From: Candidatus Iainarchaeum sp.
GTDB lineage: Archaea; Iainarchaeota; Iainarchaeia; Iainarchaeales; 0-14-0-20-30-16
DNA length: 32,000 nt
Assembly (NCBI GenBank): GCA_028710695.1
Contig: JAQTTP010000005.1
Span: 1-32,000 of the forward strand
Direction of reading: 5' to 3'
Positions 1,467 to 24,723 of the stretch are shown piece by piece. Position numbers and translations under genes: made by a program. Below the pieces are notes generated by a model. It did not search any database. It saw nothing but the letters and a program-made list of their open reading frames with translations, and had not been told where the DNA came from. Numbering within the stretch: position 1 is the stretch's first letter; each line of letters starts with the position of its first letter.

Positions 1467-2747
1467 TCATTTTTTCTTATTATATTCTATTACATCTCCA
1501 TTCTTTGGAGCTATTGCTTTTAAGCCAAGGTCTTCTTCTATTTTTTTGACATAAGCTGGCATTACAGTTTCGTCTCCGTGGACACAAACAACTAATTCTG
1601 GGTTCCAAGCAGAAATAACTTGGAATAAATTGTTTCTTCCTGCGTGTGCTGAAAAATCAAATTTCTTGATTTCTCCTTCCCACTTATATAAGCCGCCATC
1701 AATTTCAATCTCGCCTTCTTTAAGCAAAATATCTCCTTTAGTTTCTTGAACTTGAAAACCAGTAAGGTACACTGAGTTCTCTGCGTTTCTGCAAAGTCTT
1801 TTGAAGTAATATAAAACCGGGCCGCCCTCAACCATTCCAGCAGTTGTTACTATTATTGCTTGCTTTTTTACAAGCTCTTCTCTCTGCTTTTGAGTTTTAA
1901 CTTTTATTGTTTTGTTCATTGCCTGGCGTAAGTTATATGCTTCTTTAAAGTAATTAGGATACTGCAAATAAACTGCAGAAACTTTTTGGCCCATACCGTC
2001 TAGATATAATGGAACATTAAAGTTTTCTTCCGCAATTATTCCTAGCATTTCTTGTGCCCTTCCTAAAGCAAAGGCTGGGATTAAAACACTTCCACCTTTA
2101 TCTAATGTTTTTTTGATGCTATTTACAAAATCTCTTTCTATCTTTGTTCTGTCAGGGTGATCTCTGTCTCCATAGGTACTTTCAATTATTAGAACATCAA
2201 TATCTTTGTCTAAGTCATAATCTGCACCATAGTGTAATCTAGTTTCATCAACTTTGAAATCACCTGTGTATAGAACATTACCTTCTTTAGTTTCAAGCAA
2301 AGGCATTCCACTTCCTAATATGTGCCCTGCATCATAAAAAGTCAAAGACATATCTTTTGTGATTCTTATTGGTTTACGATAATTCATTTTTTTTGTTTTA
2401 CTATCTGCTATCTTGCTTTGTTCCTTATTATATTCTGGTTTTCTATCCTCAATTCTTGCAATCTTCTGCGCATCTTTCCACAGTATATCACAGATATCCA
2501 AAGTAGGAGTTGTCATATACAAATCTGGGTTGTTACCACCAAATAACGCAGGTATCAATCCAGAGTGATCCATATGTGCATGGCTCAATATAACTGCGTC
2601 TAGATTAACATCTGGCTTTTGCGGATACTCAATTCCATAGGGTTCTATTTTTATTCCATAGTCCAACAACACATTGGACTGTTTTGTGCTTACCAGATAT
2701 GATGCACGCCCTACTTCACGTCCGCCCCCTAATACTTTTATCTTCAT
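1467..2747 (-). CDS. beta-CASP metallo-beta-lactamase-fold ribonuclease (aCPSF2-like, no KH domains)
   Basis: 426 aa. The N-terminus is MKIKVLGGGREVGRASYLV. It carries the HxHxDH motif (SHAHMDHSG), later Asp/His motifs (TGDFK, ESTYGD), and a C-terminal FSAHAG...VHGD, typical of the CPSF73/RNase J beta-CASP family. Confidence 0.9.
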   Translation of the reverse strand: MKIKVLGGGREVGRASYLVSTKQSNVLLDYGIKIEPYGIEYPQKPDVNLDAVILSHAHMDHSGLIPALFGGNNPDLYMTTPTLDICDILWKDAQKIARIEDRKPEYNKEQSKIADSKTKKMNYRKPIRITKDMSLTFYDAGHILGSGMPLLETKEGNVLYTGDFKVDETRLHYGADYDLDKDIDVLIIESTYGDRDHPDRTKIERDFVNSIKKTLDKGGSVLIPAFALGRAQEMLGIIAEENFNVPLYLDGMGQKVSAVYLQYPNYFKEAYNLRQAMNKTIKVKTQKQREELVKKQAIIVTTAGMVEGGPVLYYFKRLCRNAENSVYLTGFQVQETKGDILLKEGEIEIDGGLYKWEGEIKKFDFSAHAGRNNLFQVISAWNPELVVCVHGDETVMPAYVKKIEEDLGLKAIAPKNGDVIEYNKKK

Positions 2748-2891: not shown

Positions 2892-3623
2892 CTAGTGCAC
2901 TATTTCTTTAAAATTCTTTTTTTGCATCTTTTCTAATTCCTTTAACTGTATATTAAAATCATTGCAGAATTTATTAATTACCTCTTTTAGCTCAAAAGAC
3001 GCATATGCTTTCCCAGAGATTTCTACTGGGTAGTCAGTCTCAAACAGAATCAAGTTTTTGTCTATTTTCTCGATCATTGCTTTTTGCTCATCATGAAATA
3101 AATATGTGGGCCCGAGGTTTATATAATATTCTTTGTCTGCCACTTTTCTAAGATATTTTTCAGAATTACAGAACCAATGCATAATCACTTTTTCTTGCTT
3201 GTTTTTTTCTAATATTTCCACTACTTGTCTCTGTGCATATCTAGAATGAACATTAACATAAACATCATATTCTTTTGCTAAATCCAGAACTTTTTGGAAT
3301 ATTTCATTCTGCTCTTTCTTCTGTGCGTCATCTGCAAATTTAAAATCTAATCCTATCTCCCCAATAAAGAATTTTCCTTTCTGAGTTTCCAAGATCTTTT
3401 CAAACTCTTTCAAATCTTTTTTTGTGGATTCTAAAGGATAAAGCCCAAATCCTGGGACAACCTCTTTATATTTTTCAGCCAATTCTTTTGTTTGAAAATT
3501 AGATTTCAAAGAAGTAGAGTTAACAAAAAAATAATCAAGTCCATTTTTTTTAGACAACTCTAAATATTTTTTTATTTCATCTTCTTTCAAGTGATCTAAA
3601 TGAAGATGTGCATCAAAAAACAA
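2892..3623 (-). CDS. tatD: TatD-family metal-dependent hydrolase (DNase-like)
   Basis: 243 aa with TatD motifs: FFDAHLHLD (HxH), IGEIGLDF, VNVHSR, HWFCNS, FETDYP. The start codon is TTG (plus-strand caa at 3621..3623), 2 nt after the upstream stop, with AGGGGA about 7 nt upstream. Confidence 0.9.
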   Translation of the reverse strand: MFFDAHLHLDHLKEDEIKKYLELSKKNGLDYFFVNSTSLKSNFQTKELAEKYKEVVPGFGLYPLESTKKDLKEFEKILETQKGKFFIGEIGLDFKFADDAQKKEQNEIFQKVLDLAKEYDVYVNVHSRYAQRQVVEILEKNKQEKVIMHWFCNSEKYLRKVADKEYYINLGPTYLFHDEQKAMIEKIDKNLILFETDYPVEISGKAYASFELKEVINKFCNDFNIQLKELEKMQKKNFKEIVH

Positions 3624-3625
3624 TT

Positions 3626-3868
3626 CTAATCCCCTTCATCATCTTCTTCACAACAATCTTCTTCGTCATCTTCAGAGTCATAATCTAAAGATACCTTTCC
3701 GGAGCCATTAAAATCCAGATTAAAAGGCATTATCTTTACCGCTTTTTCTGTTACCTTTGCAATATACAAGCTATTCCCACAGCAAGGGCATTCTATTATA
3801 CTCTCTGCTTTTGCATTATCATTAAATTTCCCCTCACACACTGGGCAAAGTACATTAATCTTTTTCAT
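3626..3868 (-). CDS. zinc-ribbon protein with a poly-acidic C-terminal tail (LysW/ArgW-like architecture)
   Basis: From the internal ATG 3868 the product is MKKINVLCPVCEGKF...ESIIECPCCGNSLYIAKV...SLDYDSEDDEEDCCEEDDEGD (80 aa), i.e. CxxC...CxxC followed by an acidic tail. The same SD context as secG (aaaggtgtttaaaaATG) supports this start. The track start at 3910 would overlap dedA by 56 nt. Confidence 0.65.
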   Translation of the reverse strand: MKKINVLCPVCEGKFNDNAKAESIIECPCCGNSLYIAKVTEKAVKIMPFNLDFNGSGKVSLDYDSEDDEEDCCEEDDEGD

Positions 3869-4469
3869 TTTTAAACACCTTTTTGTTTTTATAAATATAA
3901 TATATAACATATGCTAATATTATTGTAGTAGCAAGGCCTGCAACAAGCCAAGAATACTCTACAGCAACATCATAATTTTTCCCAATAAAGTATCCTAATG
4001 CAAGCAAAATTGCAACCCATATTCCAGAACCAAGAACAGTGTATAAACAAAATTTAAACAAGTTCATTCTTGCCAGTCCTGCAGGCAAGGAAATCAAATG
4101 GCGTATTCCAAAAATCAATCTTCCTGTGAAAGTAGTTATTTCGCCATGTTTTTCAAAAAAAGCATCTACTTTTGCCATTCTTGATTTAGTTAATAAAAAA
4201 TACTTTCCGTATTTGTCAATAAATGGCCTTCCAAGTAACAAGGCAAGATAGTAATTGAACAGTGCACCTAACAGGCTACCTATTACCCCACACACCCATG
4301 CAAGCAAAAGATTCATTTGACCCTGTGATGCAAGATAACCTGCAGGTATCATTATCAATTCAGATGGCAGAGGAAAGAAAGAGCTTTCAATAGCCATTAA
4401 AAGAATTATACCCCAATAGCCTAAGAGCCCAACACTGCTTACTAACCACAAAGCAATACTTTCAAGCAT
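3855..4469 (-). CDS. dedA: DedA / SNARE-associated family membrane protein
   Basis: 204 aa and multi-TM. It carries DedA-type motifs: ESSFFPLPSELIMIPAGYLA and GRLIFGIRHLISLPAGLARM. Confidence 0.85.
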   Translation of the reverse strand: MLESIALWLVSSVGLLGYWGIILLMAIESSFFPLPSELIMIPAGYLASQGQMNLLLAWVCGVIGSLLGALFNYYLALLLGRPFIDKYGKYFLLTKSRMAKVDAFFEKHGEITTFTGRLIFGIRHLISLPAGLARMNLFKFCLYTVLGSGIWVAILLALGYFIGKNYDVAVEYSWLVAGLATTIILAYVIYYIYKNKKVFKNEKD

Positions 4470-4502
4470 TATTTAATCACACTCAGGAGCCAAGTTTGCC
4501 CT

Positions 4503-5540
4503 TTATTTCTTATATGCATCTTCCACAAGCTTTTTGTTTTCGCCTTTTTCAAATGCTTTTCTAACTGGGTCCAACAAATCCACAAGGACATTTGCCACTG
4601 CGGTCTTCAAATCTAAGGGATGTAATTTCTTTTCAGCATAGATTTTTTCTAATTCTGCGTATGTTTTGAATTCTAGATTTCCGCCAAATTTTTCTGGCCT
4701 CGTAACCACAAAAGTCTTTCCAGTTCTTTTAAAATATGGAAATAATACTGCTTTAGTGAACATTAGAATTGCATTATTTTCAACTGTGTCAGTACAAAAT
4801 GCTTTCTTCATTTTGCTTTGTATAATCTCTGGAGTGTCCAATAAATCTATTTTTGATTCTTCAACAGACGAAGACATTTTATCTCCTGTTAATCCAGGCA
4901 ACATAGGATTCATAAAATGTATTCTTTGTTTATAACCGATTTTTGGTAAATATTCATGTGCTAAAACAAATATCTTTCTCTGATCTGATCCACCAAACTG
5001 GGCATCAACTTTCAAATACTCTTCATCCAAAGCTTGCAATAAAGGATATAACAAAGGTGCCATCTTTGGATTCTCTGATTGTTTTACAACCTCGGCGCCT
5101 GCTTTCTTTGCTTCTGCATTAGTAACTATATTTGCAAATCTATACATATCTTTTGTATACTCCTTGCTAAGTTGATAATCACTACCTTTAACAAATTCAA
5201 GCTTTTCAACAGGCACTTTCATTGCCTTAAGAGTTTCTTTTATTATTTTTTCATAATACTTAGACCTTAGATCTAACAACTCTTCTGGAGTTTTCTGACT
5301 GTCCAAAAAAGCATGAATATCTGCAATTAATACTTTCACTTTAGAGCCTGCTTCCAAAAAGTCAGCAAGTTTTGTAAAAGGGATTAGATACCCAATATGT
5401 ATTCTGCCAGTTGGTGCAGTACCCCAATATATTGCTAAATCTCGTTCTTTGATTACTTTATCTAGCTCTGCCTCGTTGATTACTTCTTCCAATCCTCTTA
5501 TTATCAATTCTTTCTTTTCTTTTGTATTCATAGTTATCAC
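4503..5540 (-). CDS. tyrS: tyrosine--tRNA ligase (short archaeal/eukaryal type)
   Basis: 345 aa, class I aaRS. It has a HIGH-like motif (PTGRIHIGY), a KMSKS-like motif (GDKMSSS) and GGSDQ. The track start is GTG at 5540. ATG at 5531 (MNTKEKK...) is an equally good start. Confidence 0.95.
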   Translation of the reverse strand: MITMNTKEKKELIIRGLEEVINEAELDKVIKERDLAIYWGTAPTGRIHIGYLIPFTKLADFLEAGSKVKVLIADIHAFLDSQKTPEELLDLRSKYYEKIIKETLKAMKVPVEKLEFVKGSDYQLSKEYTKDMYRFANIVTNAEAKKAGAEVVKQSENPKMAPLLYPLLQALDEEYLKVDAQFGGSDQRKIFVLAHEYLPKIGYKQRIHFMNPMLPGLTGDKMSSSVEESKIDLLDTPEIIQSKMKKAFCTDTVENNAILMFTKAVLFPYFKRTGKTFVVTRPEKFGGNLEFKTYAELEKIYAEKKLHPLDLKTAVANVLVDLLDPVRKAFEKGENKKLVEDAYKK

Positions 5541-8500
5541 TAATTATTTACATCGCCATAATCCAATTCTGAGAATCTTTTTGAGAACTCAACTAAAAAT
5601 TGCTCTGGATCTTTTATTGTAGTACCAAATATCTTTATAAATCGTTCATGAGCTTTTCTAAAACGATTTATATCCAAAAAATTACTGTATGTTAACAAGT
5701 TTTCTATTGCATTTGTAACAGAAAGTGGTCCATACTTCCAATTCTCATTATAATAAAGGTCATCAAAAGGCCTTATTGCTTCAATATATTTTGCTAACAA
5801 CTTATAATGCTCTGTAGCCCCATATTTTTGTTTTATATGTGCTATTGAAAATTGTTTTATTACTGAATCATTAGCAGCAAAACCTTTTTCTTTCAAGATT
5901 GGATCGTCTTTGAGACCATACGGGTCAGAATAGCGCAAATCCAAAACTCTTTGTCTATAAGCCAATACGTCATCATAACTTAATTTTGCAGGATCAATTG
6001 ACTTTAATTCCTCAACACCCATTTCCTTAAAACGATCTACTGGCTTCTCTGGTGGTTTTGGTAATTCATGTACTGTTCCAGAACCGGCCTTTTTTTCTCC
6101 ACCTACTGGTGCAAGGGGATTTGGAGGAGCATTATCTCTTATCTTCAAAAATTCCATTATTCTTGCTCTATCTTGTTTGAAGAATTCTTGTGGATATTTT
6201 TCCATCTTGCCATCTTGATAAAGTTGCTCCATTGTTTTAAAAAAATCAAATATTTTTTCTCTATGACTCTCCAAAAGTTCTGGAAAGTTTTTTGCAAAAG
6301 CAAATGATATATTTGTTATGACAGACGCTAAACTATGATATTCTCTACTTAAGCCCAGCCCTCTTTCTTTTTTTGCAATACCATTTAATCTCTCTGGAAG
6401 CAAAATTAAGACATTAACAATACCATCATTCAAAACCTTTTTCTTTTGTTCAGGGTTTAAATACTTGCTTTCTTGTACGCCCCTAACCCAGTCCTCTGAA
6501 CTTGCAATCCCTGGCAGTCCAATTTTTCCTTCTCTGTAAACTATCTCCTTATAGTGATTAACTGTTTTATCATCTACAAGCTCTGCTATTACTGCCTTTG
6601 CTCTTTTAAAATCAGCATCAGGAATTCCATAAAGATTATCTGGATCTGCTGCTTGTGGCTTAGGTGCTTCCTTTAGCTTTTTTTCTTCTGTCTTTTTTAC
6701 ATCTACTACAGGCTTAGGAGGTTCTTCTTTCTCGCCTTCCGGAGCCGTGTGTTCTGGATGTTTTTCATAATAATCTAGTAATATTGGCAGTGCAGTCACT
6801 CTAGACATATCGGGGGTAATGCCCACTGGCTTTAAGGTCTCAGCATTTACTTCATATTTACCAAACATTTTCTTTAAAATTACTTGATATACTTGCCTAC
6901 ACATAAGTTGTGCTAGATCTAATGCTTTGCCCGCATGCAAAGAATCAATCTTTGCAAGATCATCTTTATTCTGCTCTCTTATAATCTCAAAACTACGATC
7001 ATCAATACCTTGTTCCTCAAGGAATGCTAATGCTCTTTTTGCCAGATCAACAAGTTCTACTGTTTTCTTTGCTGTGTATTGACCTGCTTGTGCAGACCAA
7101 GTTTTATATCTTGGATCTTCTGATTTTTTCTCTTCACCTTTTTTTGTTCTTTCTACAAGACGGTCTAGCCCATCTTTTGCAATACTATTTTCTGGATCCA
7201 ATTCTAACACTTTTCTATATGCTGCTATTGCCTCTTTATCTTTTCTTTGACTTCTTAATGCAGTAGCATAGTTGATCCAAGTGCTTATATCTTTTGGATT
7301 AAGATCTAATACTTTTCTAAAATTTACCTCTGCATCAGCATATTTCCCCAAATTTAATAACTGTACTCCTTCTGATTTAAGAAGCCCACGTTTGATATTT
7401 TCTTTTTCTTTTTCTTTTTCTTCTACTTCAGCTTCTGCTAGTCTTCTATCAAGTTCTTTATCAGACATTTCTGGAAGGCTTTGTGTATGTTCACCAGGCA
7501 AAGAAGGTAATCCATCTTCTTCATAATCTGTTACTTTTAACTCTTGCCTTGGTTCTGGCCCTGGTTGTGGTGCAGGCAATAGTAATGGTTTAGCCCCTTC
7601 AGGAAGTTGTGCTACGGGTTTAGGCTCTGCTAATTTTCTATCTTCTTTTGGAGGCTCTAATCTTTTGGGTTCTTCTTGCTTTTTTTCAGGAAGTTTTTTA
7701 TTTCCCTCTTTTTTCACGCCTTCGGGTTTACCCAAAGTATCAATTAAAACAGTTTTTCCTGGTTTCTCTTCTGCACCTTCCGGAGTCAAGTCTTCAAATT
7801 CTTCTAAGATACGCCTTTTCAACATAGACATACGTCTTGTTCTTTCAGCACCCACAGGCAGTGCAAGTATAGATTCGAAGTTGTGTCTTAAATGTCCTAC
7901 TACTTTTGTAGATAAACCTGCTTGTTCTAGTTCGCCCACTTGGGCCAAAGGTTCAGCACTCTTTGGAGTTAATTTGCCTTTTGGAGGTTCTTTTATTTCT
8001 TTTTCTGGCAGTTTAGGCCTTATTTGTTTTTTATCATCTTTAGGCGGTTCAGGGCCTTTCTTTCCTGCTTCTAGTTCTTTATGCCCAAGAAATTCTCTTA
8101 TCACTCTAATCTTATCATCTGACCAGGTTATTTTTTTCTCAGCTCTAACTTTTTCTAATTCTGCAAAAAGCTGCCTCATTCTTGCTTTATAAGGTTCCAA
8201 AAGTTCTGGAACATTTCTTATAATACCTTCCAAGGCATTATATGCTCCCTCAAATATATGGTCCCTACTTAGGTGAGCAGGAGATTCTTTTATGTGTTCT
8301 AAGTCTTCAGTTACAAAATACAGATTTTCGTTAATACCATTTTTCAGAACTTGTTCTTTTTGTTCTGGAGTTAGATATTTACTGCTTTTTACGCCTTTGA
8401 CCCATTCATCAGCCGATGCTGCCACTAATTCTCCGATTTGACCCTTTAAATTCTGTTTCTCATTAAAAGATTCTCGGCTCCCAAGAGAATTCAAAGCTTT

Positions 8501-11497
8501 AATTATATCTTTAACTCTTTTCAGATCTGCTTCTGGAATTCCATAAGGATTACTAGGATCTAAAGGTCTCTTCTCTTCTTTTGGAGCCTCTGCCTTAACT
8601 TCTTCTTTTTTAGGGCCCTTTCCTTTCTCTTCCTTCTTGATTCCAGCGATCTCTCTTGCTCTTTTTAATTTTTTCTCCATTGCAGTATGAAATCCATTAC
8701 TTTCTTCCATAGCGGCTACTCTTTCTGGAGTATTCCAAGGATCTCGTTTATCTATTAAAGGATAATAGTCTGGCATTCTTTTATCTAATTGTTCTGCATA
8801 TTCTGCTGCTTGTTCTTTACTTAAAACTTCAATATTCAAACCATATAAGTCTTCATCAGCTAAATTCTTCATCTTTCCTGGTTTAAGACCTTCTTGTAAA
8901 CGTTCATAATATTCCATAAGCTTTGGCAAGGAATCTGTAGACATATAAGATTTTCCTTCTGAAACCGGAATACCAAGTTCCCTCAAAAATGCATTGTCTG
9001 TAACTCCCTCTCTTACAAATACTGTTGGCCTTAACTTTGCAATTTCTGTAAGAAGTGCAAGATTAAGTGTCCCAATAATATTATAGTGGGCATCCACCAC
9101 ATCGCCTTTAAAGCCAGATTTTTCAAGCTCTTCTAAAACCAATTCTTTCTTTAATACTGAACCTTTTATTGGAAGAGTTAGCCCGTGTTTATCAAAGAAA
9201 TCAAGAGCCTTGTAATTTAAGTCTACTATTGAGGTTATGTCTGCTCTTCTTTGCTGTTCTTTTGCGTCTAGTTCTTTTTTCTCAAATTCTTTCTTTTCTA
9301 AATCTTCTTTTTTAGTTCTATCTTTTTCTTCTAGATCTTTTGTTGCTTCAACTAGATCTTTTAATTCATGCAAACGTTGTCCTAAAAATCTAGATTTTTT
9401 TGTATTCTCAAAATGAGCTCTCAGTGGATGATCTTTATCTGCACCAGCCAAATTTTCTTCTATCTGATCAGAATACTTTCTTTCCAGTTCTCCTACATCT
9501 GCTTTTAAATTATTATAAAGGTTAACAACATCTCTTTCACTAAATCTGAACCCCGGAACTGTTCTTCTCAATTTTTTCTTTATTCCTTCTAGTTCTTTTT
9601 TGTCCTTACCGTCATAAATTCCCAGCTCAAGTAAAGCATCTACAAACTCTTCAATTCTTTCAACACGCTTTTCTTTAAGGGGTTTTTTGCCTTTTTCAGC
9701 AAGCAACAGTACTCTTTCAAGCTCTTGGACTCGCTCAAAAGGGGTCATTTTTTTATTTACTTGCTTCATTATGTTTGAATACATATACTCTGCCTTATTT
9801 GGATTTTGGCCAGTATAATGTTGCTGTGCAAGATAATCTTTCAATTTAGAATCTAAGCCCTCAGACACTTGATCAATTGCTTTATTAACTTCAGATTCTA
9901 GAGCCTCTAATTCTCCTGGGCCTGCTTCATTAAACTTTTTCTCTAAAGCTTTTGTTTTCATATGTCGTGATAAGAATCCTATTTTTCGTTCTATTCTTTT
10001 GCTTCTATTTTCTTGCACTTCCACAGGCGGTGCTGGCCCAGTCTTTTTTTCTTCTGGTTGTTTTTTCTCTTCTGGCCCATCTACGCCTGGCTCTTCCTTA
10101 AGGTCTGGCATCCTTACAACACCATCCTTATCCGGTTTTAAGAACCAATCCTCATCAAAATCCTGATCTCTGTCTCTTTCTTGCCTTTTTATATCTCCAA
10201 ATTCTTTTGGACCTTCTCTCTCTTTTTTTATTCTCGCCTTCAATTTAATTATTAAAGAATTAACCTCTGCCAACCTATTTGTTAAACTCAAGTTTTTGTG
10301 CTCTTGAGCAATTTTTTTCAATCTTTTCTTGCCTTCTTCCGGACCTTCAAAATCTAATACTAACTCCTCAAGTTCTTGATACATTCTCTTCTCGATTGTT
10401 TTTATTCTACTATAAATGTCTCTGGCTCTTTTTTGCATTACTTCAACATCACGTATTTCTCTTGTTTCTTCTCTTTCTCTTTGTAGCTTTGCTTTTGCTT
10501 CTTCTGTTTGTGGTCCAAAGATTTCAAGGAGTCCAATACCTTCAAAAACATCCTTTGCTGCGTTGTGTAATTCACCAGGCCCTTGTTTTAAACGCGGTAC
10601 CTTTACAATTTCACCATTAATAATTTCATTTTCATATTCATATTCTTCTTGTCTTGGCTGTTCCCTCACCCTTCTTCTTTCTGGCTCTTCTCTTTTTGCT
10701 TCTGGGCCTTTTTTACCCTTGCCATATAACTGTTCATATTCTTCTGGTCTTATTCTCCTAAGTACTTCAGGAGGAATAGTTTGTATAGGGGACCTTTCTT
10801 TTCTTTGTCTTGCTGGGCCTTTATATCTTAGGTTTCCTTCAGCATCAAGTTCTAATTCTTGTGGGCCCTCTCTTGCAGGGGCTTTTCTTCTTACTCTCCC
10901 CTCTTCGTCAATATCTACTTCTACCTCTCCAGGTTGTGGCTCCAATAATTCATCTATTTCCCTTTTCCGCCTGCTGCCTGGTTCTTCCATTCTTTCACGA
11001 GCGCGTGCAGGAGCAGGGGGCTCTCTTGGACCAACTGGTGGCTTTCTTTCTGGCTCTACTCTTTCAGGTTCTCTTCTCTCTGGCCTTGGCTCTGGAAGGT
11101 AATGCTTACTATTAACATCATTTATTCTTTCTAGGATTTCTCTTGCCAATACTTTGTCGTGAGCTAAAACACTTTTGAAAGTATCCAATGCAATTTTTCT
11201 TTGTTCTTGGTTGCCTGTTCTAAAATGTAAAATTAGGTTTACTAGTGGGTCTCTTTCTTTAAGTTCAACAAGTTTTTTTACGTAAAATGCAAAGAACTTT
11301 GGTCTTTTTTCAGCATAAAATCTAACTAGGTTTCCAATATTGTGTTCTAAACCGTGCCTTTCAAGCAGGGTTTTGTGGGCAGTTCCACTCTTTTCGTGTA
11401 AATCTCTAAAAACAGATCCAAAATGATGATTTTCAAGTCGTCTCGGCTCAGCAGGCATAGAAGTCACTCCATTGTAGGCATATAAACATAGATGCAC
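5540..11497 (-). CDS. giant charge-rich repeat-containing protein of unknown function with a central TPR pair
   Basis: A single uninterrupted 5.96-kb ORF of 1985 aa. The more likely start is ATG 11458 (MPAEPRR..., 1972 aa), which has GGAGTGA 6 nt upstream. By eye I see no TM helix, no signal peptide and no recognisable catalytic motif. Only the TPR-like repeats are recognisable. Strong coding character: all antisense ORFs are S/L/F-rich mirror artefacts. Confidence 0.9.
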   Translation of the reverse strand: MHLCLYAYNGVTSMPAEPRRLENHHFGSVFRDLHEKSGTAHKTLLERHGLEHNIGNLVRFYAEKRPKFFAFYVKKLVELKERDPLVNLILHFRTGNQEQRKIALDTFKSVLAHDKVLAREILERINDVNSKHYLPEPRPERREPERVEPERKPPVGPREPPAPARARERMEEPGSRRKREIDELLEPQPGEVEVDIDEEGRVRRKAPAREGPQELELDAEGNLRYKGPARQRKERSPIQTIPPEVLRRIRPEEYEQLYGKGKKGPEAKREEPERRRVREQPRQEEYEYENEIINGEIVKVPRLKQGPGELHNAAKDVFEGIGLLEIFGPQTEEAKAKLQREREETREIRDVEVMQKRARDIYSRIKTIEKRMYQELEELVLDFEGPEEGKKRLKKIAQEHKNLSLTNRLAEVNSLIIKLKARIKKEREGPKEFGDIKRQERDRDQDFDEDWFLKPDKDGVVRMPDLKEEPGVDGPEEKKQPEEKKTGPAPPVEVQENRSKRIERKIGFLSRHMKTKALEKKFNEAGPGELEALESEVNKAIDQVSEGLDSKLKDYLAQQHYTGQNPNKAEYMYSNIMKQVNKKMTPFERVQELERVLLLAEKGKKPLKEKRVERIEEFVDALLELGIYDGKDKKELEGIKKKLRRTVPGFRFSERDVVNLYNNLKADVGELERKYSDQIEENLAGADKDHPLRAHFENTKKSRFLGQRLHELKDLVEATKDLEEKDRTKKEDLEKKEFEKKELDAKEQQRRADITSIVDLNYKALDFFDKHGLTLPIKGSVLKKELVLEELEKSGFKGDVVDAHYNIIGTLNLALLTEIAKLRPTVFVREGVTDNAFLRELGIPVSEGKSYMSTDSLPKLMEYYERLQEGLKPGKMKNLADEDLYGLNIEVLSKEQAAEYAEQLDKRMPDYYPLIDKRDPWNTPERVAAMEESNGFHTAMEKKLKRAREIAGIKKEEKGKGPKKEEVKAEAPKEEKRPLDPSNPYGIPEADLKRVKDIIKALNSLGSRESFNEKQNLKGQIGELVAASADEWVKGVKSSKYLTPEQKEQVLKNGINENLYFVTEDLEHIKESPAHLSRDHIFEGAYNALEGIIRNVPELLEPYKARMRQLFAELEKVRAEKKITWSDDKIRVIREFLGHKELEAGKKGPEPPKDDKKQIRPKLPEKEIKEPPKGKLTPKSAEPLAQVGELEQAGLSTKVVGHLRHNFESILALPVGAERTRRMSMLKRRILEEFEDLTPEGAEEKPGKTVLIDTLGKPEGVKKEGNKKLPEKKQEEPKRLEPPKEDRKLAEPKPVAQLPEGAKPLLLPAPQPGPEPRQELKVTDYEEDGLPSLPGEHTQSLPEMSDKELDRRLAEAEVEEKEKEKENIKRGLLKSEGVQLLNLGKYADAEVNFRKVLDLNPKDISTWINYATALRSQRKDKEAIAAYRKVLELDPENSIAKDGLDRLVERTKKGEEKKSEDPRYKTWSAQAGQYTAKKTVELVDLAKRALAFLEEQGIDDRSFEIIREQNKDDLAKIDSLHAGKALDLAQLMCRQVYQVILKKMFGKYEVNAETLKPVGITPDMSRVTALPILLDYYEKHPEHTAPEGEKEEPPKPVVDVKKTEEKKLKEAPKPQAADPDNLYGIPDADFKRAKAVIAELVDDKTVNHYKEIVYREGKIGLPGIASSEDWVRGVQESKYLNPEQKKKVLNDGIVNVLILLPERLNGIAKKERGLGLSREYHSLASVITNISFAFAKNFPELLESHREKIFDFFKTMEQLYQDGKMEKYPQEFFKQDRARIMEFLKIRDNAPPNPLAPVGGEKKAGSGTVHELPKPPEKPVDRFKEMGVEELKSIDPAKLSYDDVLAYRQRVLDLRYSDPYGLKDDPILKEKGFAANDSVIKQFSIAHIKQKYGATEHYKLLAKYIEAIRPFDDLYYNENWKYGPLSVTNAIENLLTYSNFLDINRFRKAHERFIKIFGTTIKDPEQFLVEFSKRFSELDYGDVNN
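6135..7050 (-). repeat. intragenic protein-level repeat, unit 2 (part B about 7050..6750, part A about 6646..6135)
   Basis: Part A2 reads DPDNLYGIPDADFKRAKAVIAEL...SSEDWVRGVQESKYLNPEQKKKVLNDGI...LSRE...FPELLE...RARIMEFL. Part B2 reads RALAFLEEQG...LPILLDYYEKH. The YGIP core is also similar at DNA level: ggaattccataa occurs in both copies. Confidence 0.6.
7151..7352 (-). other. two TPR repeats inside the giant protein
   Basis: The sequence GKYADAEVNFRKVLDLNPKDISTWINYATALRSQRKDKEAIAAYRKVLELDPENSIAKDGLDRLVE fits the TPR consensus of two 34-aa units (A/Y..A...F.kaLelnP). Confidence 0.7.
8085..9215 (-). repeat. intragenic protein-level repeat, unit 1 (part B about 9215..8890, part A about 8560..8085)
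   Basis: Part A1 reads DPSNPYGIPEADLKRVKDIIKAL...SADEWVKGVKSSKYLTPEQKEQVLKNGI...LSRD...VPELLE...IRVIREFL. It aligns colinearly with part A2 in unit 2. Part B1 reads KALDFFDKHG...LPKLMEYYERL and is weakly similar to B2. Confidence 0.6.
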
Positions 11498-11555
11498 AAA
11501 TATAAAAATATATTTATCTTATTTTATATATCTTTATAAGATAAAGAAAGGAATT

Positions 11556-11861
11556 TTGAAGAGGTTACTGAAGGGATCAAAAATGATGTGGGAATATTGT
11601 GCAAATTGTGGAAGTATAAGTTTAAAGAAAGTTGACGGTTTAATGAAACAATGTAACAAATGCGGATGGAGAGGAGTTCCAGATAAAGCAGATATGGAAC
11701 ATATAAATAAAAAAGCAAGAGCAAATATTGGGAATCCAAGAATGGTTGCTGCTGCAGAAAGAAGAGCAAGTGAACCTGTAGATCCACATGCTCCAAAAGA
11801 GAGCACAAAGGATTTAAAAGAAAGACTAAAGAAACAAAGCGATGATTTCGATATCTTTTAA
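11556..11861 (+). CDS. small zinc-ribbon protein, unknown function
   Basis: The product contains MMWEYCANCGSISLKKVDGLMKQCNKCGWRG (CxxC-x15-CxxC), then a basic or disordered stretch and an acidic-aromatic end, QSDDFDIF. The true start is probably the internal ATG ATG at 11583 (92 aa). It is followed by a clean terminator. Confidence 0.7.
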   Translation: MKRLLKGSKMMWEYCANCGSISLKKVDGLMKQCNKCGWRGVPDKADMEHINKKARANIGNPRMVAAAERRASEPVDPHAPKESTKDLKERLKKQSDDFDIF

Positions 11862-12728: not shown

Positions 12729-13892
12729 CTAATTTCCTGGTTTATTCGGCCCATCAATAAACAACTTAGTCCTATGAGTTAATACTTTAGTTGCTAAACT
12801 TGGTGCCCTGTTTTTCCTTTTTACTTGACTTAATTTCAAAAAACGATCTATTGCCATTTTTATTGTAGGAAGATCTTTTTTTAATACAGAAAACACAATC
12901 TCATCTGCCTGATCTCTATCTACAACAATATTATAATCCATAAATTCTATCCACAATTGAGTATATTTTCTTACTAAACTTTCTACATCTAAATACACAT
13001 TACGCAACAATAATGATGCAAATGTAGAATGAATATGGCTACTACAATCTGGAAGTGCTTCTGCAAGTTCTGAGATATATTTTTTCCTTTCAACATAATA
13101 ATCTGATAAAGATTTATATCGTTTAGTTAAAACCAAATAAACTGGAGTATCTGTCTTTTCACCAGGATATTTTTCTTTAGCTTCTTTTTTAAGAGCCTCA
13201 TAAGTTCTAAAAAAATCAGCAACCGTTTCATAAGATGATTTCATTACTAGACTAATTGCTGTTCTATGCAAATTTTTATACTGAGGATATTTTTCTGTAC
13301 ACTCGGCAGCAAGTAATTCTTTTTTCCGAACCAAATCAGAAGTACTTGAATTGCCCACCTTAAGTACTTGACCTTTAGTTAACCCACTCGCTACTCCTTT
13401 TGCAACTTTATCTGCAAGATCAAACACAGGGATTTGTGAATTTGTGCCCATATTATGAGAAACAAAGCCTACTTCCTGCATTAAATCAAATTCGGCTTTG
13501 ACATTATTGTAAAACGCAGAAAAATAGGAGGGCCCATATTCTTCTAAATATATTTCACGAATAGTTAATTGTCTGGCCATTTGTTTAAAGAAATAGTCAA
13601 ATCTGGGGTCTTTACCAAGTCTTTTTTTTATTTCCGAAGGTGCGTGAGCATAAATTAAGTCAATACTTGCTTTTTGTCTTCGTGTAAGATCACCTTTACG
13701 CCCGTGACCCCTGGACAATAAAATATCAGAAATAAATTTAGATGCTCGTGCTTGCTCTAAAATTTTTGCGCCTAATAATCTTCTATATTCTAGATTTTCA
13801 GGAACTGTTAAACCATATATAGAAGTGTATCTCCTTATTACTTCTTCAGGATGTTTTAATTCTGGTGGTTTTGGTTTAGATCTAATTTGCAT
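12729..13892 (-). CDS. hypothetical alpha-helical (repeat-like) protein
   Basis: 387-aa ORF with no motif I can assign. The C-terminal half shows about four degenerate units of about 40 aa. Examples are KYPQYKNLHRTAISLVMKSSYETVADFFRTYEAL and KYPGEKTDTPVYLVLTKRYKSLSDYYVERKKYISEL. It converges on the methyltransferase gene with a 1-nt gap. Confidence 0.75.
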   Translation of the reverse strand: MQIRSKPKPPELKHPEEVIRRYTSIYGLTVPENLEYRRLLGAKILEQARASKFISDILLSRGHGRKGDLTRRQKASIDLIYAHAPSEIKKRLGKDPRFDYFFKQMARQLTIREIYLEEYGPSYFSAFYNNVKAEFDLMQEVGFVSHNMGTNSQIPVFDLADKVAKGVASGLTKGQVLKVGNSSTSDLVRKKELLAAECTEKYPQYKNLHRTAISLVMKSSYETVADFFRTYEALKKEAKEKYPGEKTDTPVYLVLTKRYKSLSDYYVERKKYISELAEALPDCSSHIHSTFASLLLRNVYLDVESLVRKYTQLWIEFMDYNIVVDRDQADEIVFSVLKKDLPTIKMAIDRFLKLSQVKRKNRAPSLATKVLTHRTKLFIDGPNKPGN

Positions 13893-18177: not shown

Positions 18178-18540
18178 TTATTGATCGGCTACAAGTTTTT
18201 TCCTTAAAAGGATTTGCCTTATTGCTCGCAAGGTTATTTGTCTGGTTGTAAGATCATATTTTGGAGGTACTTCCACACCACGCCTAATATCATTAAATTC
18301 AGATTCTATGGCCTCCAACTGTTCTTGAAGCTTTACCATTATTTTCCGATCAGGCCTACTCTTTGCTCTTAAAGCCAGATCCAAAACTGATTTCAATCTC
18401 CTTATCTCCGCCAAACCATTTGATGAATTAATATATCTATGTACTGCCACATCCCGGGGGGCAATTAATGGCCTTTCTTTTTGAAATTCTGGTCTTTTAA
18501 ATTCAAGTTTTTCTATCCTTCTAGGTTCTACAGCCACCAT
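18178..18540 (-). CDS. hypothetical protein (helical, basic)
   Basis: 120-aa ORF lying 6 nt downstream of the 143-aa ORF and 18 nt upstream of the methyltransferase on the same strand. No recognisable motif and no Cys. Confidence 0.65.
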   Translation of the reverse strand: MVAVEPRRIEKLEFKRPEFQKERPLIAPRDVAVHRYINSSNGLAEIRRLKSVLDLALRAKSRPDRKIMVKLQEQLEAIESEFNDIRRGVEVPPKYDLTTRQITLRAIRQILLRKKLVADQ

Positions 18541-19069: not shown

Positions 19070-21928
19070 GTGATAATAATGGGAATAGGGCATGTTGATT
19101 TGGAAAATAAAATATCCCAATTTTGGGAAAAGAACAAAACCTTTGAAAAATCTGTTGAAAAAAGGCCAAAAGACAAAGAATACATCTTTTATGACGGCCC
19201 ACCTTTTGCAACAGGAGTTCCTCACTATGGTCACATCTTAGGTTTAACAAGCAAAGATCTATTTCCAAGATACTGGACTATGAAAGGATTCCGAGTAGAA
19301 AGAAAATGGGGTTGGGACTGTCACGGCCTACCAATAGAAAACATCGCAGAGAAAGAGCTTGGAATAAAGAACAAAAAGCAGATTGAAGAAATGGGAATAG
19401 ATAAATTCAATGAATTCTGTAGATCCAAGGTTCTATACTTTGTAAACGAGTGGGGAAAGACAGTAAAAAGAATGGGAAAATGGATTGAATTTGATAACTC
19501 CTACAAAACAATGGACTCTAGTTATATGGAAACTGTATGGTGGATATTCAAGACTTTGCACGACAGGGGTTATGTATACGAAGGCAAGAAAGTTCTAATG
19601 TACTGCCCAAGATGCCAGACACCAATAGCAAACGCAGAAATTGATATGGATAATTCTTATAAGGACATCACAGAAAAGACAATCACTGCAAAATTCAAAT
19701 TAAAAGATGAGAAAGACACTTACTTCTTGGCATGGACAACAACACCATGGACTTTAATTGGAAATGCAGCACTAGCAGTAAATGAGAATCTAACTTATGT
19801 TAAAGTAGAGTCCGGAAGCGAAAAATACATTCTTGTAAAAGAAAGACTAAAAGAAGTTTTCAAAAGCAAGCCTTACAAAGTTTTAGAAGAATTCAAAGGC
19901 TCAAAAATAGTTGGAAAGGATTATCTTCCGCTTTACAAATTAGAAACAAAAAACAAAGGCTATTATGTAATTGCGGGTGGAAACGAAGTTACATCAGAAG
20001 ATGGAACCGGAATAGTTCACATGGCAACATATGGTGAATTCGATTATGAAATGATTAAAAAATACAAGCTTCCAATATTCCAACACATTGGAAACAACGG
20101 AACTTTGGTAGAGGGGCCAAAAGAATGGCTTGGAATGTGGTTCAAAGAGGTAGATAAAAGAGTTCTAGAAGATTTAGAAAATAAAGGAATAACTTTCAGC
20201 ACAGAGGACTATGCGCACTCATACCCTTTCTGCTACAGATGTAACACACCTCTAATCTACAACGCAGTAGCATCTTGGTTTATAGATATTACAAAAATAA
20301 AAAAAGAAATTCTAAAAAGAGGAAAAGAAATCAAATGGCACCCAGCATCAAAAATGGAAAAGAGATTCTTAAACATAGTTGAAACAGCACCAGATTGGTG
20401 TATTGCAAGAAACAGATATTGGGCAACAGCAATTCCCGTTTGGAAATGTAGCTGTGGAAACCAAAAGATAATTGGAAGCATAGAAGAACTAAGTAAATCA
20501 GCAATAGAAAAAGTTCCAAAAGATCTAGACTTACACAAGCACATTGTTGACAACATCCACCTAAAATGTGAAAAGTGTGGAAAGAAAATGGAAAGAATTC
20601 CAGAAGTTCTAGACTGTTGGATGGAATCTGGGGCTATGCCTTATGCTTCAAAGCATTATCCTTTTGAAAACAAAGAAAAGTTTGATTCTATATTCCCCGC
20701 AGACTTTGTTTCAGAATATGTTGCACAAGTAAGAACCTGGTTCTACTACATGCACGTTCTTGGTGTTTTACTATTTGATCACGCACCATTCCAGCACGTA
20801 GTTGTTACTGGAAACATATTAGCAGCAGATGGCCAGAAGATGTCAAAATCAAAGAACAACTTCCCAGATCCAAGCTTAATGTTTGACAAGTTCGGAGCAG
20901 ATTCTTTAAGATTTTATTTGATGTCAAACCCAGTTATGAACGGAGAAGACATTAACTTTAATGAAGAAGTTTTGAAAGATGTAAACAGGAAAGTCTATGG
21001 ACTTCTATCCAACATAAAATCATTCTACGAACTATTCAACGACGGAAAAGGAGAGCTAGATAATACAAAATCAAAGAACTTACTTGATATCTGGCTAATA
21101 AGCAAGACTAATAACCTAATTAAAGATGTCACAAGTAGTCTAGACAATTACGACACAGTAAACACTTGTGCAAAAATATTAGATTACATTGTTGAATTAT
21201 CTACATGGTATGTAAGAAGAAGCAGAGATAGATTCAAAGGCAAGGATGCAAAAGACAAACAAGCAGCGATTAATACTTTGGGCTATGCACTAAGAAACCT
21301 TTCATTAATAATTGCACCAATAACTCCATTCATTGCTGAAGATGTACACCAAGCATTAATGAAAGGGCATAAAGAATTAGAAGAATCTGTGCATCTTGAG
21401 TTATGGCCAAAAGCAAACTCAAAAGCAATAAATACAGAAGTTATGAAAAACATGGATTTAACTAGAGATCTAGTAACAAAAGCATTGAGCGAAAGAGAAA
21501 CAGCAAAGATTCCAATAAAGCAGCCACTATCAACACTGACAATCTTTGGAGCAGATCTTGATAAAGAGTATTTAGAATTAATAAAAGACGAACTAAATAT
21601 TAAAGAAATAAAACTAAAAGCAGGAAAAGAAGTGAAAATGGAATTAGACATAAAAATAACTCCTGAACTTCTACAAGAAAGGATTTCAAGAGAGTTAATA
21701 AGAAACGTAAATGAACTAAGAAAACAAGAGAACTTAACTCTAAAAGACAGAATCGAGCTTTGTATAGACACCGAATCAGATCTAATAAAAAAGAGCGCAG
21801 AGAGATTTAAGCAAAGCATTATGGATTCTGTTCAAGCAGACAAGCTAGAGTTCAAAAAAAGCGAGAAAGCAAAAGAGTTCATAATCGATAAAGAGGCAGT
21901 AAATATTGGTTTTAAAGTAAAAAGATGA
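19070..21928 (+). CDS. ileS: isoleucine--tRNA ligase
   Basis: It carries PPFATGVPHYGHIL (HIGH), KMSKSK (KMSKS), WDCHGLP, an editing-domain TTTPWTL, and Zn-type CPRC and CYRC pairs. The track start is GTG 19070. ATG 19079 (MGIGHVD...) is a plausible alternative. Confidence 0.95.
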   Translation: MIIMGIGHVDLENKISQFWEKNKTFEKSVEKRPKDKEYIFYDGPPFATGVPHYGHILGLTSKDLFPRYWTMKGFRVERKWGWDCHGLPIENIAEKELGIKNKKQIEEMGIDKFNEFCRSKVLYFVNEWGKTVKRMGKWIEFDNSYKTMDSSYMETVWWIFKTLHDRGYVYEGKKVLMYCPRCQTPIANAEIDMDNSYKDITEKTITAKFKLKDEKDTYFLAWTTTPWTLIGNAALAVNENLTYVKVESGSEKYILVKERLKEVFKSKPYKVLEEFKGSKIVGKDYLPLYKLETKNKGYYVIAGGNEVTSEDGTGIVHMATYGEFDYEMIKKYKLPIFQHIGNNGTLVEGPKEWLGMWFKEVDKRVLEDLENKGITFSTEDYAHSYPFCYRCNTPLIYNAVASWFIDITKIKKEILKRGKEIKWHPASKMEKRFLNIVETAPDWCIARNRYWATAIPVWKCSCGNQKIIGSIEELSKSAIEKVPKDLDLHKHIVDNIHLKCEKCGKKMERIPEVLDCWMESGAMPYASKHYPFENKEKFDSIFPADFVSEYVAQVRTWFYYMHVLGVLLFDHAPFQHVVVTGNILAADGQKMSKSKNNFPDPSLMFDKFGADSLRFYLMSNPVMNGEDINFNEEVLKDVNRKVYGLLSNIKSFYELFNDGKGELDNTKSKNLLDIWLISKTNNLIKDVTSSLDNYDTVNTCAKILDYIVELSTWYVRRSRDRFKGKDAKDKQAAINTLGYALRNLSLIIAPITPFIAEDVHQALMKGHKELEESVHLELWPKANSKAINTEVMKNMDLTRDLVTKALSERETAKIPIKQPLSTLTIFGADLDKEYLELIKDELNIKEIKLKAGKEVKMELDIKITPELLQERISRELIRNVNELRKQENLTLKDRIELCIDTESDLIKKSAERFKQSIMDSVQADKLEFKKSEKAKEFIIDKEAVNIGFKVKR

Positions 21929-21932
21929 TTCT

Positions 21933-22871
21933 ATGGTTGAATATATCAAGGATGTTATTTGGAAGAACGGCCAGAAAGTAAGCGACTTTTTAGAGCAGAT
22001 GAAAGCCAATGGATATCAAAGCATAGAGCTCTATAAAGCAGCAGAAATAATCTACAAGATGAAAAAAGAGAAAGCAAAGATCTTTCTAACATTTACATCT
22101 AACTTAGGAACATCAGGATTAAGAGGGCTTTTTGCACAGCTAATAAAGCTTGGACTTGCAGACATAATTGTTACAACTGCTGGGGCTTTAGAAGAAGATA
22201 TTATGAAATCAATAGGAGAAAAATTCTTAATAACTAGATTTAATGCAGATGATATTGCATTACACGAAAAAGGCCATAACAGAGTAGGAAATATTGCAAT
22301 AACTACAGACACCTACCAAAAATTTGAAGGCTTTATAATTCCAATTTTAGAAAAAATAGCAAAAGAAAAAAAATCTTTAACAACTTCTGAATTAATTTAT
22401 GAAATTGGCAAAAACCTAAAAGATAATAATTCTTTTATAAGACAGGCATATCTAAAGAAAGTTCCAATACACTGCCCATCAATTATTGATGGCTCAATTG
22501 GATTCCAATTATATTTCGTGAAACAAAAGCATCCAGAATTTAACATAGATATTATTAGCGATTTCAAAGAAACAATGTTTTATACAACCCAGGACGACAG
22601 AAAAGGAGTAATTGCTTTAGGTGGAGGAGTTTCAAAGCACTTTGCAATTCTATCCTCCCTTATAAGTGGTGGAATGGACTATGCAGTATATATCACCACT
22701 GCAAATGCAACTTCCGGCAGTGCATCAGGAGCAACAACAAGCGAGGCAAAGAGTTGGGGAAAAATAAAAGATGATGCAGACTCAGTTACAGTAAAGGGGG
22801 ATGCAACTGTTCTATTTCCACTTGTTATGTTCTCAGTTTTAGACAGACTTAAAAAAGAAGGGGAAATATAA
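21933..22871 (+). CDS. dys: deoxyhypusine synthase
   Basis: 312 aa. It has TTAGALEEDIMK (the GG-x-EED-type NAD/spermidine site) and SEAKSWGKIK, matching the EA-x-SWGKI motif that carries the catalytic Lys. It starts 4 nt after the ileS stop. Confidence 0.9.
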   Translation: MVEYIKDVIWKNGQKVSDFLEQMKANGYQSIELYKAAEIIYKMKKEKAKIFLTFTSNLGTSGLRGLFAQLIKLGLADIIVTTAGALEEDIMKSIGEKFLITRFNADDIALHEKGHNRVGNIAITTDTYQKFEGFIIPILEKIAKEKKSLTTSELIYEIGKNLKDNNSFIRQAYLKKVPIHCPSIIDGSIGFQLYFVKQKHPEFNIDIISDFKETMFYTTQDDRKGVIALGGGVSKHFAILSSLISGGMDYAVYITTANATSGSASGATTSEAKSWGKIKDDADSVTVKGDATVLFPLVMFSVLDRLKKEGEI

Positions 22872-23887: not shown

Positions 23888-24723
23888 TTCCTATGTCTAG
23901 CGATTCCATGCTTTATCTAAAGAAACAAAACTTGATCCCATACACAAACAAGAATGCAAAAATTGGAATACTGGGAATACCTTTTGATTCAACATCAATA
24001 GAAGTTCCGGGCCAGAGATTTGGGCCAAGGGACATAAGAGAGCAATTTTCAAAACTTTACGGCTATGACTTTGAAACAAAGCAAAACATATATGAAAAAA
24101 TTGATGATTTAGGAGACATTGACGCTGTGCACGGAAGCTTTGAACTTACAGCAGAAAGAATAAAAGACACGATCGATCATCTAGATAAGAAGCCAATATT
24201 CTTAGGCGGAGAACATTCAATAACCCACGCAATAGTAAAATGCCTAAAGCCCGACGTTTTAGTCATATTTGATGCTCACGCAGATCTTTTTGATACTTAT
24301 CAAGGAGAAAAATATTCACATATTTCTTATTTACACAAAATTATGTCTGAAAAATTAGTAAAAAAAGCATATGTGTTCGGCTGCAGAGCATACACACAAG
24401 AAGAATTGGAGTTTGCAAAGAAATTCAAAGTGGTTTTAGTAAACCCAAAAGATGTAAAAAAAGAAGTTAAGAAAATAAAGAAACAGAACATCTACCTTTC
24501 TGTTGATCTAGATGTTTTAGAATTCAATCTTGCAATGGGCACAGGTACTCCAGAATTCGGTGGCTTATCATTAAACGATCTTTTGAGCCACATAAAAACA
24601 GTATTATCTAATAACAAAGTAGTTGGGGCAGACATAGTAGAACTTAACCCACTAATAGATTCTCAAAAGACAACCACTTTCTGTGCTGCCCAGATTTTGA
24701 AAGAAATAATACTACACATGTAG
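23884..24723 (+). CDS. speB: agmatinase / ureohydrolase (arginase family)
   Basis: 279 aa with the Mn-ligand motifs LGGEHSITH, FDAHADL, SVDLDVL and VGADIVELNP..D. The GTG start overlaps the upstream stop (GTGA). ATG 23893 is an alternative start. Confidence 0.85.
   Translation: MIPMSSDSMLYLKKQNLIPYTNKNAKIGILGIPFDSTSIEVPGQRFGPRDIREQFSKLYGYDFETKQNIYEKIDDLGDIDAVHGSFELTAERIKDTIDHLDKKPIFLGGEHSITHAIVKCLKPDVLVIFDAHADLFDTYQGEKYSHISYLHKIMSEKLVKKAYVFGCRAYTQEELEFAKKFKVVLVNPKDVKKEVKKIKKQNIYLSVDLDVLEFNLAMGTGTPEFGGLSLNDLLSHIKTVLSNNKVVGADIVELNPLIDSQKTTTFCAAQILKEIILHM

Follow-up and report, generated by a model that had tools for sequence, protein, structure and literature searches.

The stretch of DNA analysed here (the window) comprises 32,000 nucleotides (nt), positions 1 to 32,000 of contig JAQTTP010000005.1 in assembly GCA_028710695.1 of Candidatus Iainarchaeum sp., a DPANN archaeon of the Iainarchaeota, and has a G+C content of 34%. 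Its reverse strand carries a very long open reading frame (ORF) at positions 5540 to 11497, which encodes a giant protein and is followed on the same strand by genes for tyrosyl-tRNA synthetase (TyrRS), a DedA/VTT membrane protein, a small Zn ribbon protein, a TatD-family nuclease, and a beta-CASP RNase. Counted from a GTG codon, this ORF spans 1,985 codons, or 18.6% of the window, in agreement with the first-pass annotation of the same DNA, which had described a single uninterrupted ORF covering about 19% of it. The encoded protein, referred to below as the giant protein, matches known families only in a pair of tetratricopeptide repeats (TPRs) and is tentatively read here as an intracellular scaffold built from helical modules.

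The giant gene is a real, native, and intact protein-coding gene. Its frame contains no internal stop codons, whereas the two alternative frames on that strand contain 177 and 207; the composition-based probability of finding no stop over 1,985 codons is ∼1e-71, and when the window was shuffled 100 times, the longest stop-to-stop ORF reached 180 amino acid residues (aa). The relative synonymous codon usage (RSCU) of the giant gene correlates with that of nine other genes of the window at r = 0.96, including a shared strong preference for AGA as the Arg codon, whereas the off-frames of the same gene correlate with the host genes at only 0.38 and 0.70, which indicates that the gene is native. 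Although the count of 1,985 codons from GTG stands as an ORF, translation probably starts at the ATG at 11458 (MPAEPRR...), which is preceded, 6 nt upstream, by the Shine-Dalgarno-like sequence GGAGTGA. The resulting 1,972-aa product is identical to the GenBank entry MDD4983801.1 (PHH82_03110), annotated as a hypothetical protein of a metagenome-assembled genome and encoded on a 62,980-bp contig. The gene closes with TAG TGA TAA, a run of three in-frame stops (window positions 5534 to 5542, reverse strand; TAG at 5542 to 5540). A read-through fusion with tyrS was considered and rejected, given these three stops and the different frame of tyrS; antisense ORFs within the giant gene were likewise rejected as genes, as they match no family and are explained by the purine richness of the coding strand. 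In the independent Logan assembly of the public sequencing run SRR22315507, a 1,372-bp contig (L002) is 100% identical to window positions 3239 to 4610, which shows that the organism is present in the raw reads of that run; this contig carries the DedA gene, the giant gene itself lies outside it, and the index lists a second contig (20 to 50 kb) with the same DedA protein. Exact-protein look-ups matched DedA and returned no match for P0001, TyrRS, TatD, the beta-CASP RNase, or the upstream Zn ribbon ORF.

The giant coding sequence and the module map derived from composition, alignments, and structure models are as follows (aa 14 corresponds to the probable ATG start).

5540..11458, reverse strand: giant coding sequence from the probable ATG to TAG (1,972 aa); the GTG-extended ORF reaches 11497
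11090..11458, reverse strand: N-terminal helical domain, aa 14 to 136, about seven short helices, HEAT/ARM-like by eye only (low-confidence model; no family match)
10505..11110, reverse strand: predicted disordered Arg/Glu/Pro-rich polyampholyte, aa ∼130 to 331 (composition scan and model)
10220..10504, reverse strand: helical segment M1, aa 332 to 426, including a 49-residue charged helix (model)
10025..10219, reverse strand: second disordered stretch, P/E/K-rich, aa 427 to 491 (composition scan and model)
9188..10024, reverse strand: helical region M2, aa 492 to 770, ending in a predicted 71-residue helix (low-confidence model)
8660..9187, reverse strand: module A1, globular helical domain, aa 771 to 946 (model; no family match)
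8069..8560, reverse strand: module B1, aa 980 to 1143, beginning with NPYGIPEADLKR and including SKYLTPEQK and NVPELLEPYKAR (alignment of B1 with B2)
6650..8068, reverse strand: block absent from the relative described below, aa 1144 to 1616 (∼470 residues), comprising P/E/K linkers, X, the TPR pair, and A2 (DNA comparison with the contig of the relative)
within 6650..8068, reverse strand: small helical domain X, aa 1176 to 1250
7157..7420, reverse strand: TPR region, aa 1360 to 1447, with two repeats in the Pfam core at aa 1380 to 1439 (Pfam and PDB-sequence matches)
6758..7114, reverse strand: module A2, helical bundle, aa 1462 to 1580, with confidence scores of 70 to 85 (AlphaFold)
6128..6646, reverse strand: module B2, aa 1618 to 1790, paralogue of B1 (alignment and AlphaFold)
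5543..6046, reverse strand: C-terminal aromatic-rich helical domain C, aa 1818 to 1985 (AlphaFold and comparison with the relative)

The structure models differ in reliability along the chain. For aa 1441 to 1985, the AlphaFold model was built on a two-sequence alignment and has a mean predicted local distance difference test score (pLDDT) of 64; it contains three all-alpha domains with pLDDT of 70 to 88, namely, A2 (aa ∼1462 to 1580), B2 (aa ∼1627 to 1790), and C (aa ∼1828 to 1980), joined by linkers with pLDDT below 50. The model of aa 14 to 1175 was obtained from a single sequence (pLDDT, 45) and, at this low confidence, shows only helices and long unstructured stretches at aa ∼130 to 331 and ∼427 to 491. 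A composition scan picked out 11 stretches that are high in charge, low in hydrophobic residues, and located at the linkers, and ∼30% of the chain looks disordered. Some of the linkers, e.g., those at aa 1144 to 1175, 1251 to 1292, and 1591 to 1616, have a high content of P, E, V, and K. Taken together, the models describe a soluble-type all-alpha polyampholyte with about 10 predicted helical modules (N, M1, M2, A1, B1, X, the TPR pair, A2, B2, and C). Among the predicted helices, the longest two (49 and 71 residues, both in the low-confidence model) consist of charged residues to 53 to 54% and of large hydrophobic residues to 25 to 29%, a composition that fits ER/K-type single alpha-helices better than heptad coiled coils; the center of the 71-residue helix (aa ∼722 to 750) is E/K-rich and resembles such a single alpha-helix.

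The N-to-C-terminal architecture proposed in the first-pass annotation largely holds, except for two details. That annotation had proposed two copies of a large two-part module, and the B part is indeed duplicated: B1 and B2 share 36% identity (E = 2e-23; z ∼30), and the window contains exactly two matches to the B-module profile, compared with one to the C-domain profile. The duplication of the A part was rejected, as the A1/A2 comparison gave z = 2.6, a score reached by 8 of 300 shuffles. The proposed ∼400 aa of low complexity near the N terminus fall into two disordered stretches (aa ∼130 to 331 and ∼427 to 491) that are split by a helical segment of ∼95 aa. This disordered part (window ∼10120 to 10900, reverse strand) carries three copies of a short motif, D-x-[ED]-G-x-[VL]-R, at aa ∼200, ∼221, and ∼459, which read DEEGRVRRKAP, DAEGNLRYKGP, and DKDGVVRMPD, respectively, with a related NGEIVKVPR near aa 295; the motif could be a linear binding motif.

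The overall composition of the giant protein (E, 13%; K, 11.7%; L, 10%; R, 7%; P, 6.5%; Cys, 0.1%; S plus T, 6.5%) is marked by a 38% share of charged residues that nearly cancel out (net charge of −2, i.e., about 0), with Arg rising to 14 to 17% over aa 101 to 300. No signal peptide or transmembrane (TM) helix was found in its sequence (the highest 19-residue Kyte-Doolittle mean is 1.01); neither the N terminus, MPAEPRRLENHH, nor the C terminus, ...ELDYGDVNN, carries a membrane anchor; and a motif scan found no GxxxxGK[ST], HExxH, or CxxC, which bears out the earlier statement that a signal peptide, a TM helix, a P-loop, and HExxH are lacking. The same window provides an internal contrast in the reverse-strand ORFs 26126-29488 and 29457-31862, which are TM-anchored, contain 6 to 7% Cys, and have net charges of −78 and −89; their density of glycosylation sequons, 0.6 to 1.25 per 100 aa, is 3 to 6 times that of the giant protein (0.2 per 100 aa). 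The claim that the giant protein is unlike the usual surface giants of DPANN archaea is thus supported by its Cys, Ser/Thr, and sequon contents and by its charge.

The two anchored ORFs encode 1,120 and 801 aa, respectively, with N-terminal TM anchors, DUF4215 matches, and a weak CARDB match, and the second of them may extend outside the window. Both carry the sequence PVIDHNK just past the anchor and, on the strength of this shared motif, are probably paralogous surface proteins.

The sole match of the giant protein to the family libraries is to the two TPRs at aa 1380 to 1439, which were recognized by TPR_1 (41.3 bits; cut-off, 27.8), TPR_2 (39.6 bits; cut-off, 27), and TPR_8 (32.5 bits; cut-off, 25.7); designed consensus-TPR proteins in PDB match the same stretch. 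Searches of the whole protein against Pfam and NCBIfam returned nothing else, nine separate segments gave nothing significant against Pfam and PHROGs (all PHROG matches had E values of at least 0.05), and the PADLOC profiles did not match. No relative was found by tblastn among phage records or by pattern and tblastn searches of IMG/VR and viral contigs. Profile searches of PDB with the B and C modules reached a best E value of 0.3, and Foldseek comparisons of the all-alpha models with PDB and BFVD reached best E values of 0.13 to 1.5 with TM scores below 0.2. In a literature search, no description of a protein like this one was found. Two candidates were discarded: a tRNA_synt_1c_R2 match on a K/E-rich stretch (E = 0.18) is noise, and an HxK motif of the PLD type in AHIKQKYG has, as judged by eye, the wrong spacing to Asp. 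The earlier assertions that the protein cannot be assigned to any described family and that the TPR pair is its only recognizable element therefore both stand.

An exhaustive phmmer search was carried out with the last 545 aa of the giant protein (aa 1441 to 1985) against 1.84 billion representatives of clusters at 50% identity. It found two proteins, the source protein itself and one relative, P0002 (E = 4e-55; 41% identity), each of which forms a singleton cluster. Word-index homologue searches with the full-length protein and with a concatenate of its linker-free globular parts retrieved only the protein itself; these negative results are weak because a 312-aa query joining N and A1 missed its own source and because P0002 was missed despite 31 exact shared 5-mers. 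Scans of genome and metagenome contigs with back-translated patterns and with a DNA pattern for HIKQKYGxTEHY retrieved nothing, not even the known contig of the relative, and the collections scanned probably lack both genomes.

The relative is encoded on a 2,626-bp JGI contig, L001 (3300045118, Ga0438315_0045696), where its frame, at least 436 codons long, is open to the 5′ end of the contig, so that P0002 is a C-terminal fragment of a larger protein. The two proteins share ∼41 to 43% identity with conserved motif blocks, and all indels between them are multiples of a codon; the frame kept open in the relative and these indels support a real, native gene. Identity varies by module, from 34 to 38% in B2 to 52% in the C domain, the best conserved part of the protein, with the core FS[IL]AHIKQKYG[AS]TEHY..YIEAIRPF, and the linkers differ in length. 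The first 60 residues of P0002 form the orthologue of the B1 tail (score of 167, compared with 76 for B2), with NVPELLEPYKAR identical in both, and are followed by ∼25 residues and then by B2 and C. Accordingly, the DNA between the aligned flanks measures 656 nt in the JGI contig and 2,069 nt in the window: the block of X, linker, TPRs, and A2 (∼471 codons, between B1 and B2) is present in the window gene and absent from P0002. This absence makes the TPRs and A2 accessory and shows that A and B do not form a conserved two-part unit.

The P0002 gene ends in two consecutive stop codons (positions 1305 to 1310 of its contig) and has tyrS directly after it, abutting as in the window, with dedA coming next. 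The linkage of the giant gene to tyrS, which the first-pass annotation had left to be looked for in other genomes, is thus present in the one relative found with the C-terminal query. The TyrRS proteins of the two contigs are 78% identical and the DedA N termini are similarly close, so that the giant protein, at 42 to 52% identity, diverges roughly 3 times faster than its flanking genes. On these comparisons, its family is very narrow, fast-evolving, and lineage-restricted. The conserved order of the giant gene, tyrS, and dedA says little about a functional linkage, because in a single fairly close relative (as judged from TyrRS) this order would be expected from descent alone.

We favor, with a probability of about 0.4, the interpretation of the giant protein as a cytoplasmic multivalent scaffold or tether for protein-protein interactions. 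Its cytoplasmic location is suggested by the contrast in composition with the two TM-anchored ORFs, and a design of docking modules on spacers is suggested by the lack of catalytic signatures, the TPRs, the duplicated helical modules, the repeated short motifs, and the length-variable linkers. In such a protein, the modules would be strung on disordered P/E/K/R-rich polyampholyte linkers of 25 to 200 residues; the conserved C domain and the duplicated B modules would serve as constant docking units and the TPR block as an optional, lineage-specific additional docking site; the charged linkers and the E/K-rich helix would provide spacing, either flexible or stiff; and the D-x-[ED]-G-x-[VL]-R copies in the disordered part near the N terminus would function as short linear motifs for binding. 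The suggestion of the first-pass annotation that the protein is a scaffold, a cytoskeletal element, or a condensate former is compatible with the modelled anatomy and with the composition. Several considerations weigh against the reading as a cytoplasmic scaffold. We infer both its location and its function; proteins that face hosts or viruses typically show fast divergence and large indels as well; the exhaustive search was limited to aa 1441 to 1985, and the word-index search missed known positives; the models were built from one or two sequences (pLDDT of 64 over the C-terminal third and of 45 elsewhere); and two family members are too few for conservation to pinpoint functional surfaces.

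Known systems offer partial parallels to a scaffold of this kind. The RNase E C-terminal half, polar hubs of the HubP/FimV type, and eukaryotic AKAP-like scaffolds (compared here from general knowledge) share the beads-on-a-string layout of modules and motifs on charged disordered linkers, in some cases a TPR-type docking unit, and poor conservation outside the docking units. They show no sequence or fold kinship to the giant protein, which, in turn, lacks catalytic, LysM, and TM domains. The P/E/V/K linkers and the E/K helix similarly recall the PEVK springs of titin and the ER/K single alpha-helices of myosins VI and X (also from general knowledge); however, this likeness is compositional only, as Ig, Fn3, and motor domains are absent from the giant protein. 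Resemblance to the TPR-repeat proteins (PF00515/PF07719/PF13181) consists in two canonical TPRs scoring above the gathering thresholds, but these make up ∼3% of the chain and lie in the block that the relative lacks, which rules them out as a family-defining feature.

Giant proteins of small-genome archaea are mostly regarded as acting on the cell surface or inside a host or partner, and the giant protein could, if improbably, be an exported or cell-cell interface protein that takes a non-classical route to the surface or into a partner. With the surface giants of DPANN archaea and of the candidate phyla radiation, including the DUF4215 ORFs of the window, it shares a very large, lineage-specific, fast-evolving gene in a small genome. 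Its divergence relative to the housekeeping neighbors, the presence or absence of 471 codons between close relatives, and the yield of two matches among 1.84 billion representatives favor such a role, and the Pro/Lys/Glu-rich spacers recall (from general knowledge) the wall-spanning regions of surface proteins. However, the giant protein lacks a signal peptide, a TM helix, and a C-terminal anchor, and its scarce Cys, few sequons, low Ser/Thr content, and near-zero charge are the reverse of what is seen in both anchored giants of the same window. Further, its models are all-alpha, and Pfam detects in it none of the beta-rich domains (Ig-like, CARDB, PKD, or DUF4215) that are hallmarks of S-layer proteins and adhesins. 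In addition, a passage in PMC10936187 describes the Iainarchaeota as possibly free-living. An organizer of RNA, ribosomes, or aminoacyl-tRNA synthetases, tied to the tyrS, TatD, and beta-CASP genes in the manner of the RNase E C-terminal scaffold or of Arc1p/AIMP, is about equally doubtful; here, RNA binding would fall to the disordered region rich in Arg, with the helical modules as docking sites for enzymes. It is suggested by the direct adjacency to tyrS in both genomes, by the TatD nuclease and the aCPSF-type beta-CASP RNase in the same run, and by the Arg enrichment and the repeated motifs of the N-terminal disordered region. Against it, the synteny comes from the one close relative discussed above, acidic residues offset the basic ones, and Pfam searches of the whole protein and its segments detected no RNA-binding, GST-like, EMAPII/OB, or other tRNA-binding domain of the kind found in multi-synthetase scaffolds, the tRNA_synt_1c_R2 noise match being the sole hint.

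Less likely still is a self-assembling structural protein, i.e., a cytoskeletal filament, a coiled-coil network, or a condensate former. The polyampholyte character, the two long predicted helices, the sizeable disordered fraction, and the investment of a 6-kb gene in a small genome would all suit such a role, and with the SMC/Rad50-like coiled-coil ATPases the giant protein shares its large size, high charge, and helix-rich nature. Yet searches of Pfam, NCBIfam, the nine segments, PDB sequences, and the Foldseek PDB set produced no match to tubulin/FtsZ/CetZ, actin/crenactin, ESCRT-III/CdvB, or bactofilin, and Pfam and NCBIfam gave no SMC or AAA match; Walker A and B motifs and a long antiparallel coiled coil are also absent, the longest predicted helix being that of 71 residues. 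In comparison with intermediate-filament-like proteins, the two long helices (from the low-confidence model) have a charge fraction of 0.53 to 0.54 and few large hydrophobic residues (0.25 to 0.29), so that single alpha-helix spacers would fit them better; the models gave no convincing long heptad coiled coil, and most of the chain is predicted to consist of short-helix globular modules. Cytoskeletal proteins are, moreover, usually slow-evolving and widespread, unlike this one. The last alternative, that the ORF is spurious, decaying, or a product of misassembly and no functional gene, might appeal to the status of the protein as a database singleton with one fragmentary relative and to its long low-complexity stretches; it is essentially excluded by the stop-codon statistics and the host-like codon usage, by the relative, which keeps the frame and the conserved motif blocks at 43% identity, and by the identical Logan contig, which lies beside the giant gene and does not cover it.

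If the scaffold interpretation is correct, the general kind, a modular scaffold-type protein, is a known one, and the domain families are apparently new: at least two, B and C, would be added. To our knowledge, nearly all giant genes of such small-genome organisms encode surface proteins, and a giant that is intracellular, membrane-less, and all-helical would be a sign of unexpected internal organization in ultrasmall archaea; for a DPANN genome, at about 1 Mb, a 6-kb gene is costly. It would be a long shot to regard the giant protein as the founding member of an unrecognized class of archaeal intracellular mega-scaffolds built from new helical folds (B and C) on polyampholyte spacers. Such a mega-scaffold would compartmentalize or tether core machinery, e.g., the neighboring translation and RNA-processing enzymes, in an ultrasmall cell and would be a prokaryotic functional counterpart of the eukaryotic scaffold or condensate hubs. 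At present, the giant protein is one of many lineage-restricted hypothetical proteins, and its value is that of a well-delimited candidate with a module map, an orthologue, motifs, and a rate contrast.

The immediate surroundings of the giant gene include the following two features.

4503..5531, reverse strand: tyrS (tyrosine-tRNA ligase), with its ATG 8 nt past the TAG of the giant gene and the relative arranged alike
11459..11579, no strand assigned: divergent AT-rich intergenic spacer (∼120 bp) with TATA-like runs and the GGAGTGA site

The spacer is a putative promoter region. Upstream of it, a Zn ribbon ORF (11580-11861) lies on the forward strand, so that the giant gene heads the tight same-strand run of tyrS, dedA, Zn ribbon, tatD, and beta-CASP genes, as the first-pass annotation had stated. 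The same annotation had placed the start of tyrS either at GTG 5540, with a 1-nt overlap with the stop of the giant gene, or at ATG 5531, 8 nt after it; the latter is favored by the alignment with the TyrRS of the relative (both begin with MNT...) and by the JGI gene call, leaving the overlap as just an alternative. The TyrRS was identified by NF006330 (318.7 bits; cut-off, 220). The beta-CASP RNase (1467-2747, reverse strand) aligns to positions 176 to 629 of the aCPSF1 model, i.e., only to the catalytic part, and lacks the N-terminal KH domains, which makes it aCPSF2-like; it also scores 237 bits with the Cas14 MBL/beta-CASP model, well under the cut-off of that model. A search of the whole window against Rfam found no RNA family, and there is no tRNA gene in the window. 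At 11524-11861, ORFs overlap on both strands, with family hints only for the forward-strand Zn ribbon (CxxC...CxxC), and the reverse-strand ORFs of 90 to 94 aa in this region are probably spurious.

Elsewhere in the window, three reverse-strand ORFs encode a 240-aa protein that is TM-anchored at its N terminus (389-1111; no Pfam match), a basic 387-aa protein (12729-13892; no Pfam or NCBIfam match), and a 120-aa protein adjoining a DUF2666 gene (18178-18540; no Pfam match). On the forward strand, positions 19070 to 24723 hold a tightly packed string of genes with overlapping or abutting starts and stops, which encode IleRS, deoxyhypusine synthase, a pyridoxal phosphate-dependent decarboxylase of the Orn/Arg/DAP type, and an arginase/agmatinase-family protein; from these assignments, the string looks like a set of polyamine and aIF5A-hypusination genes attached to an aminoacyl-tRNA synthetase gene.

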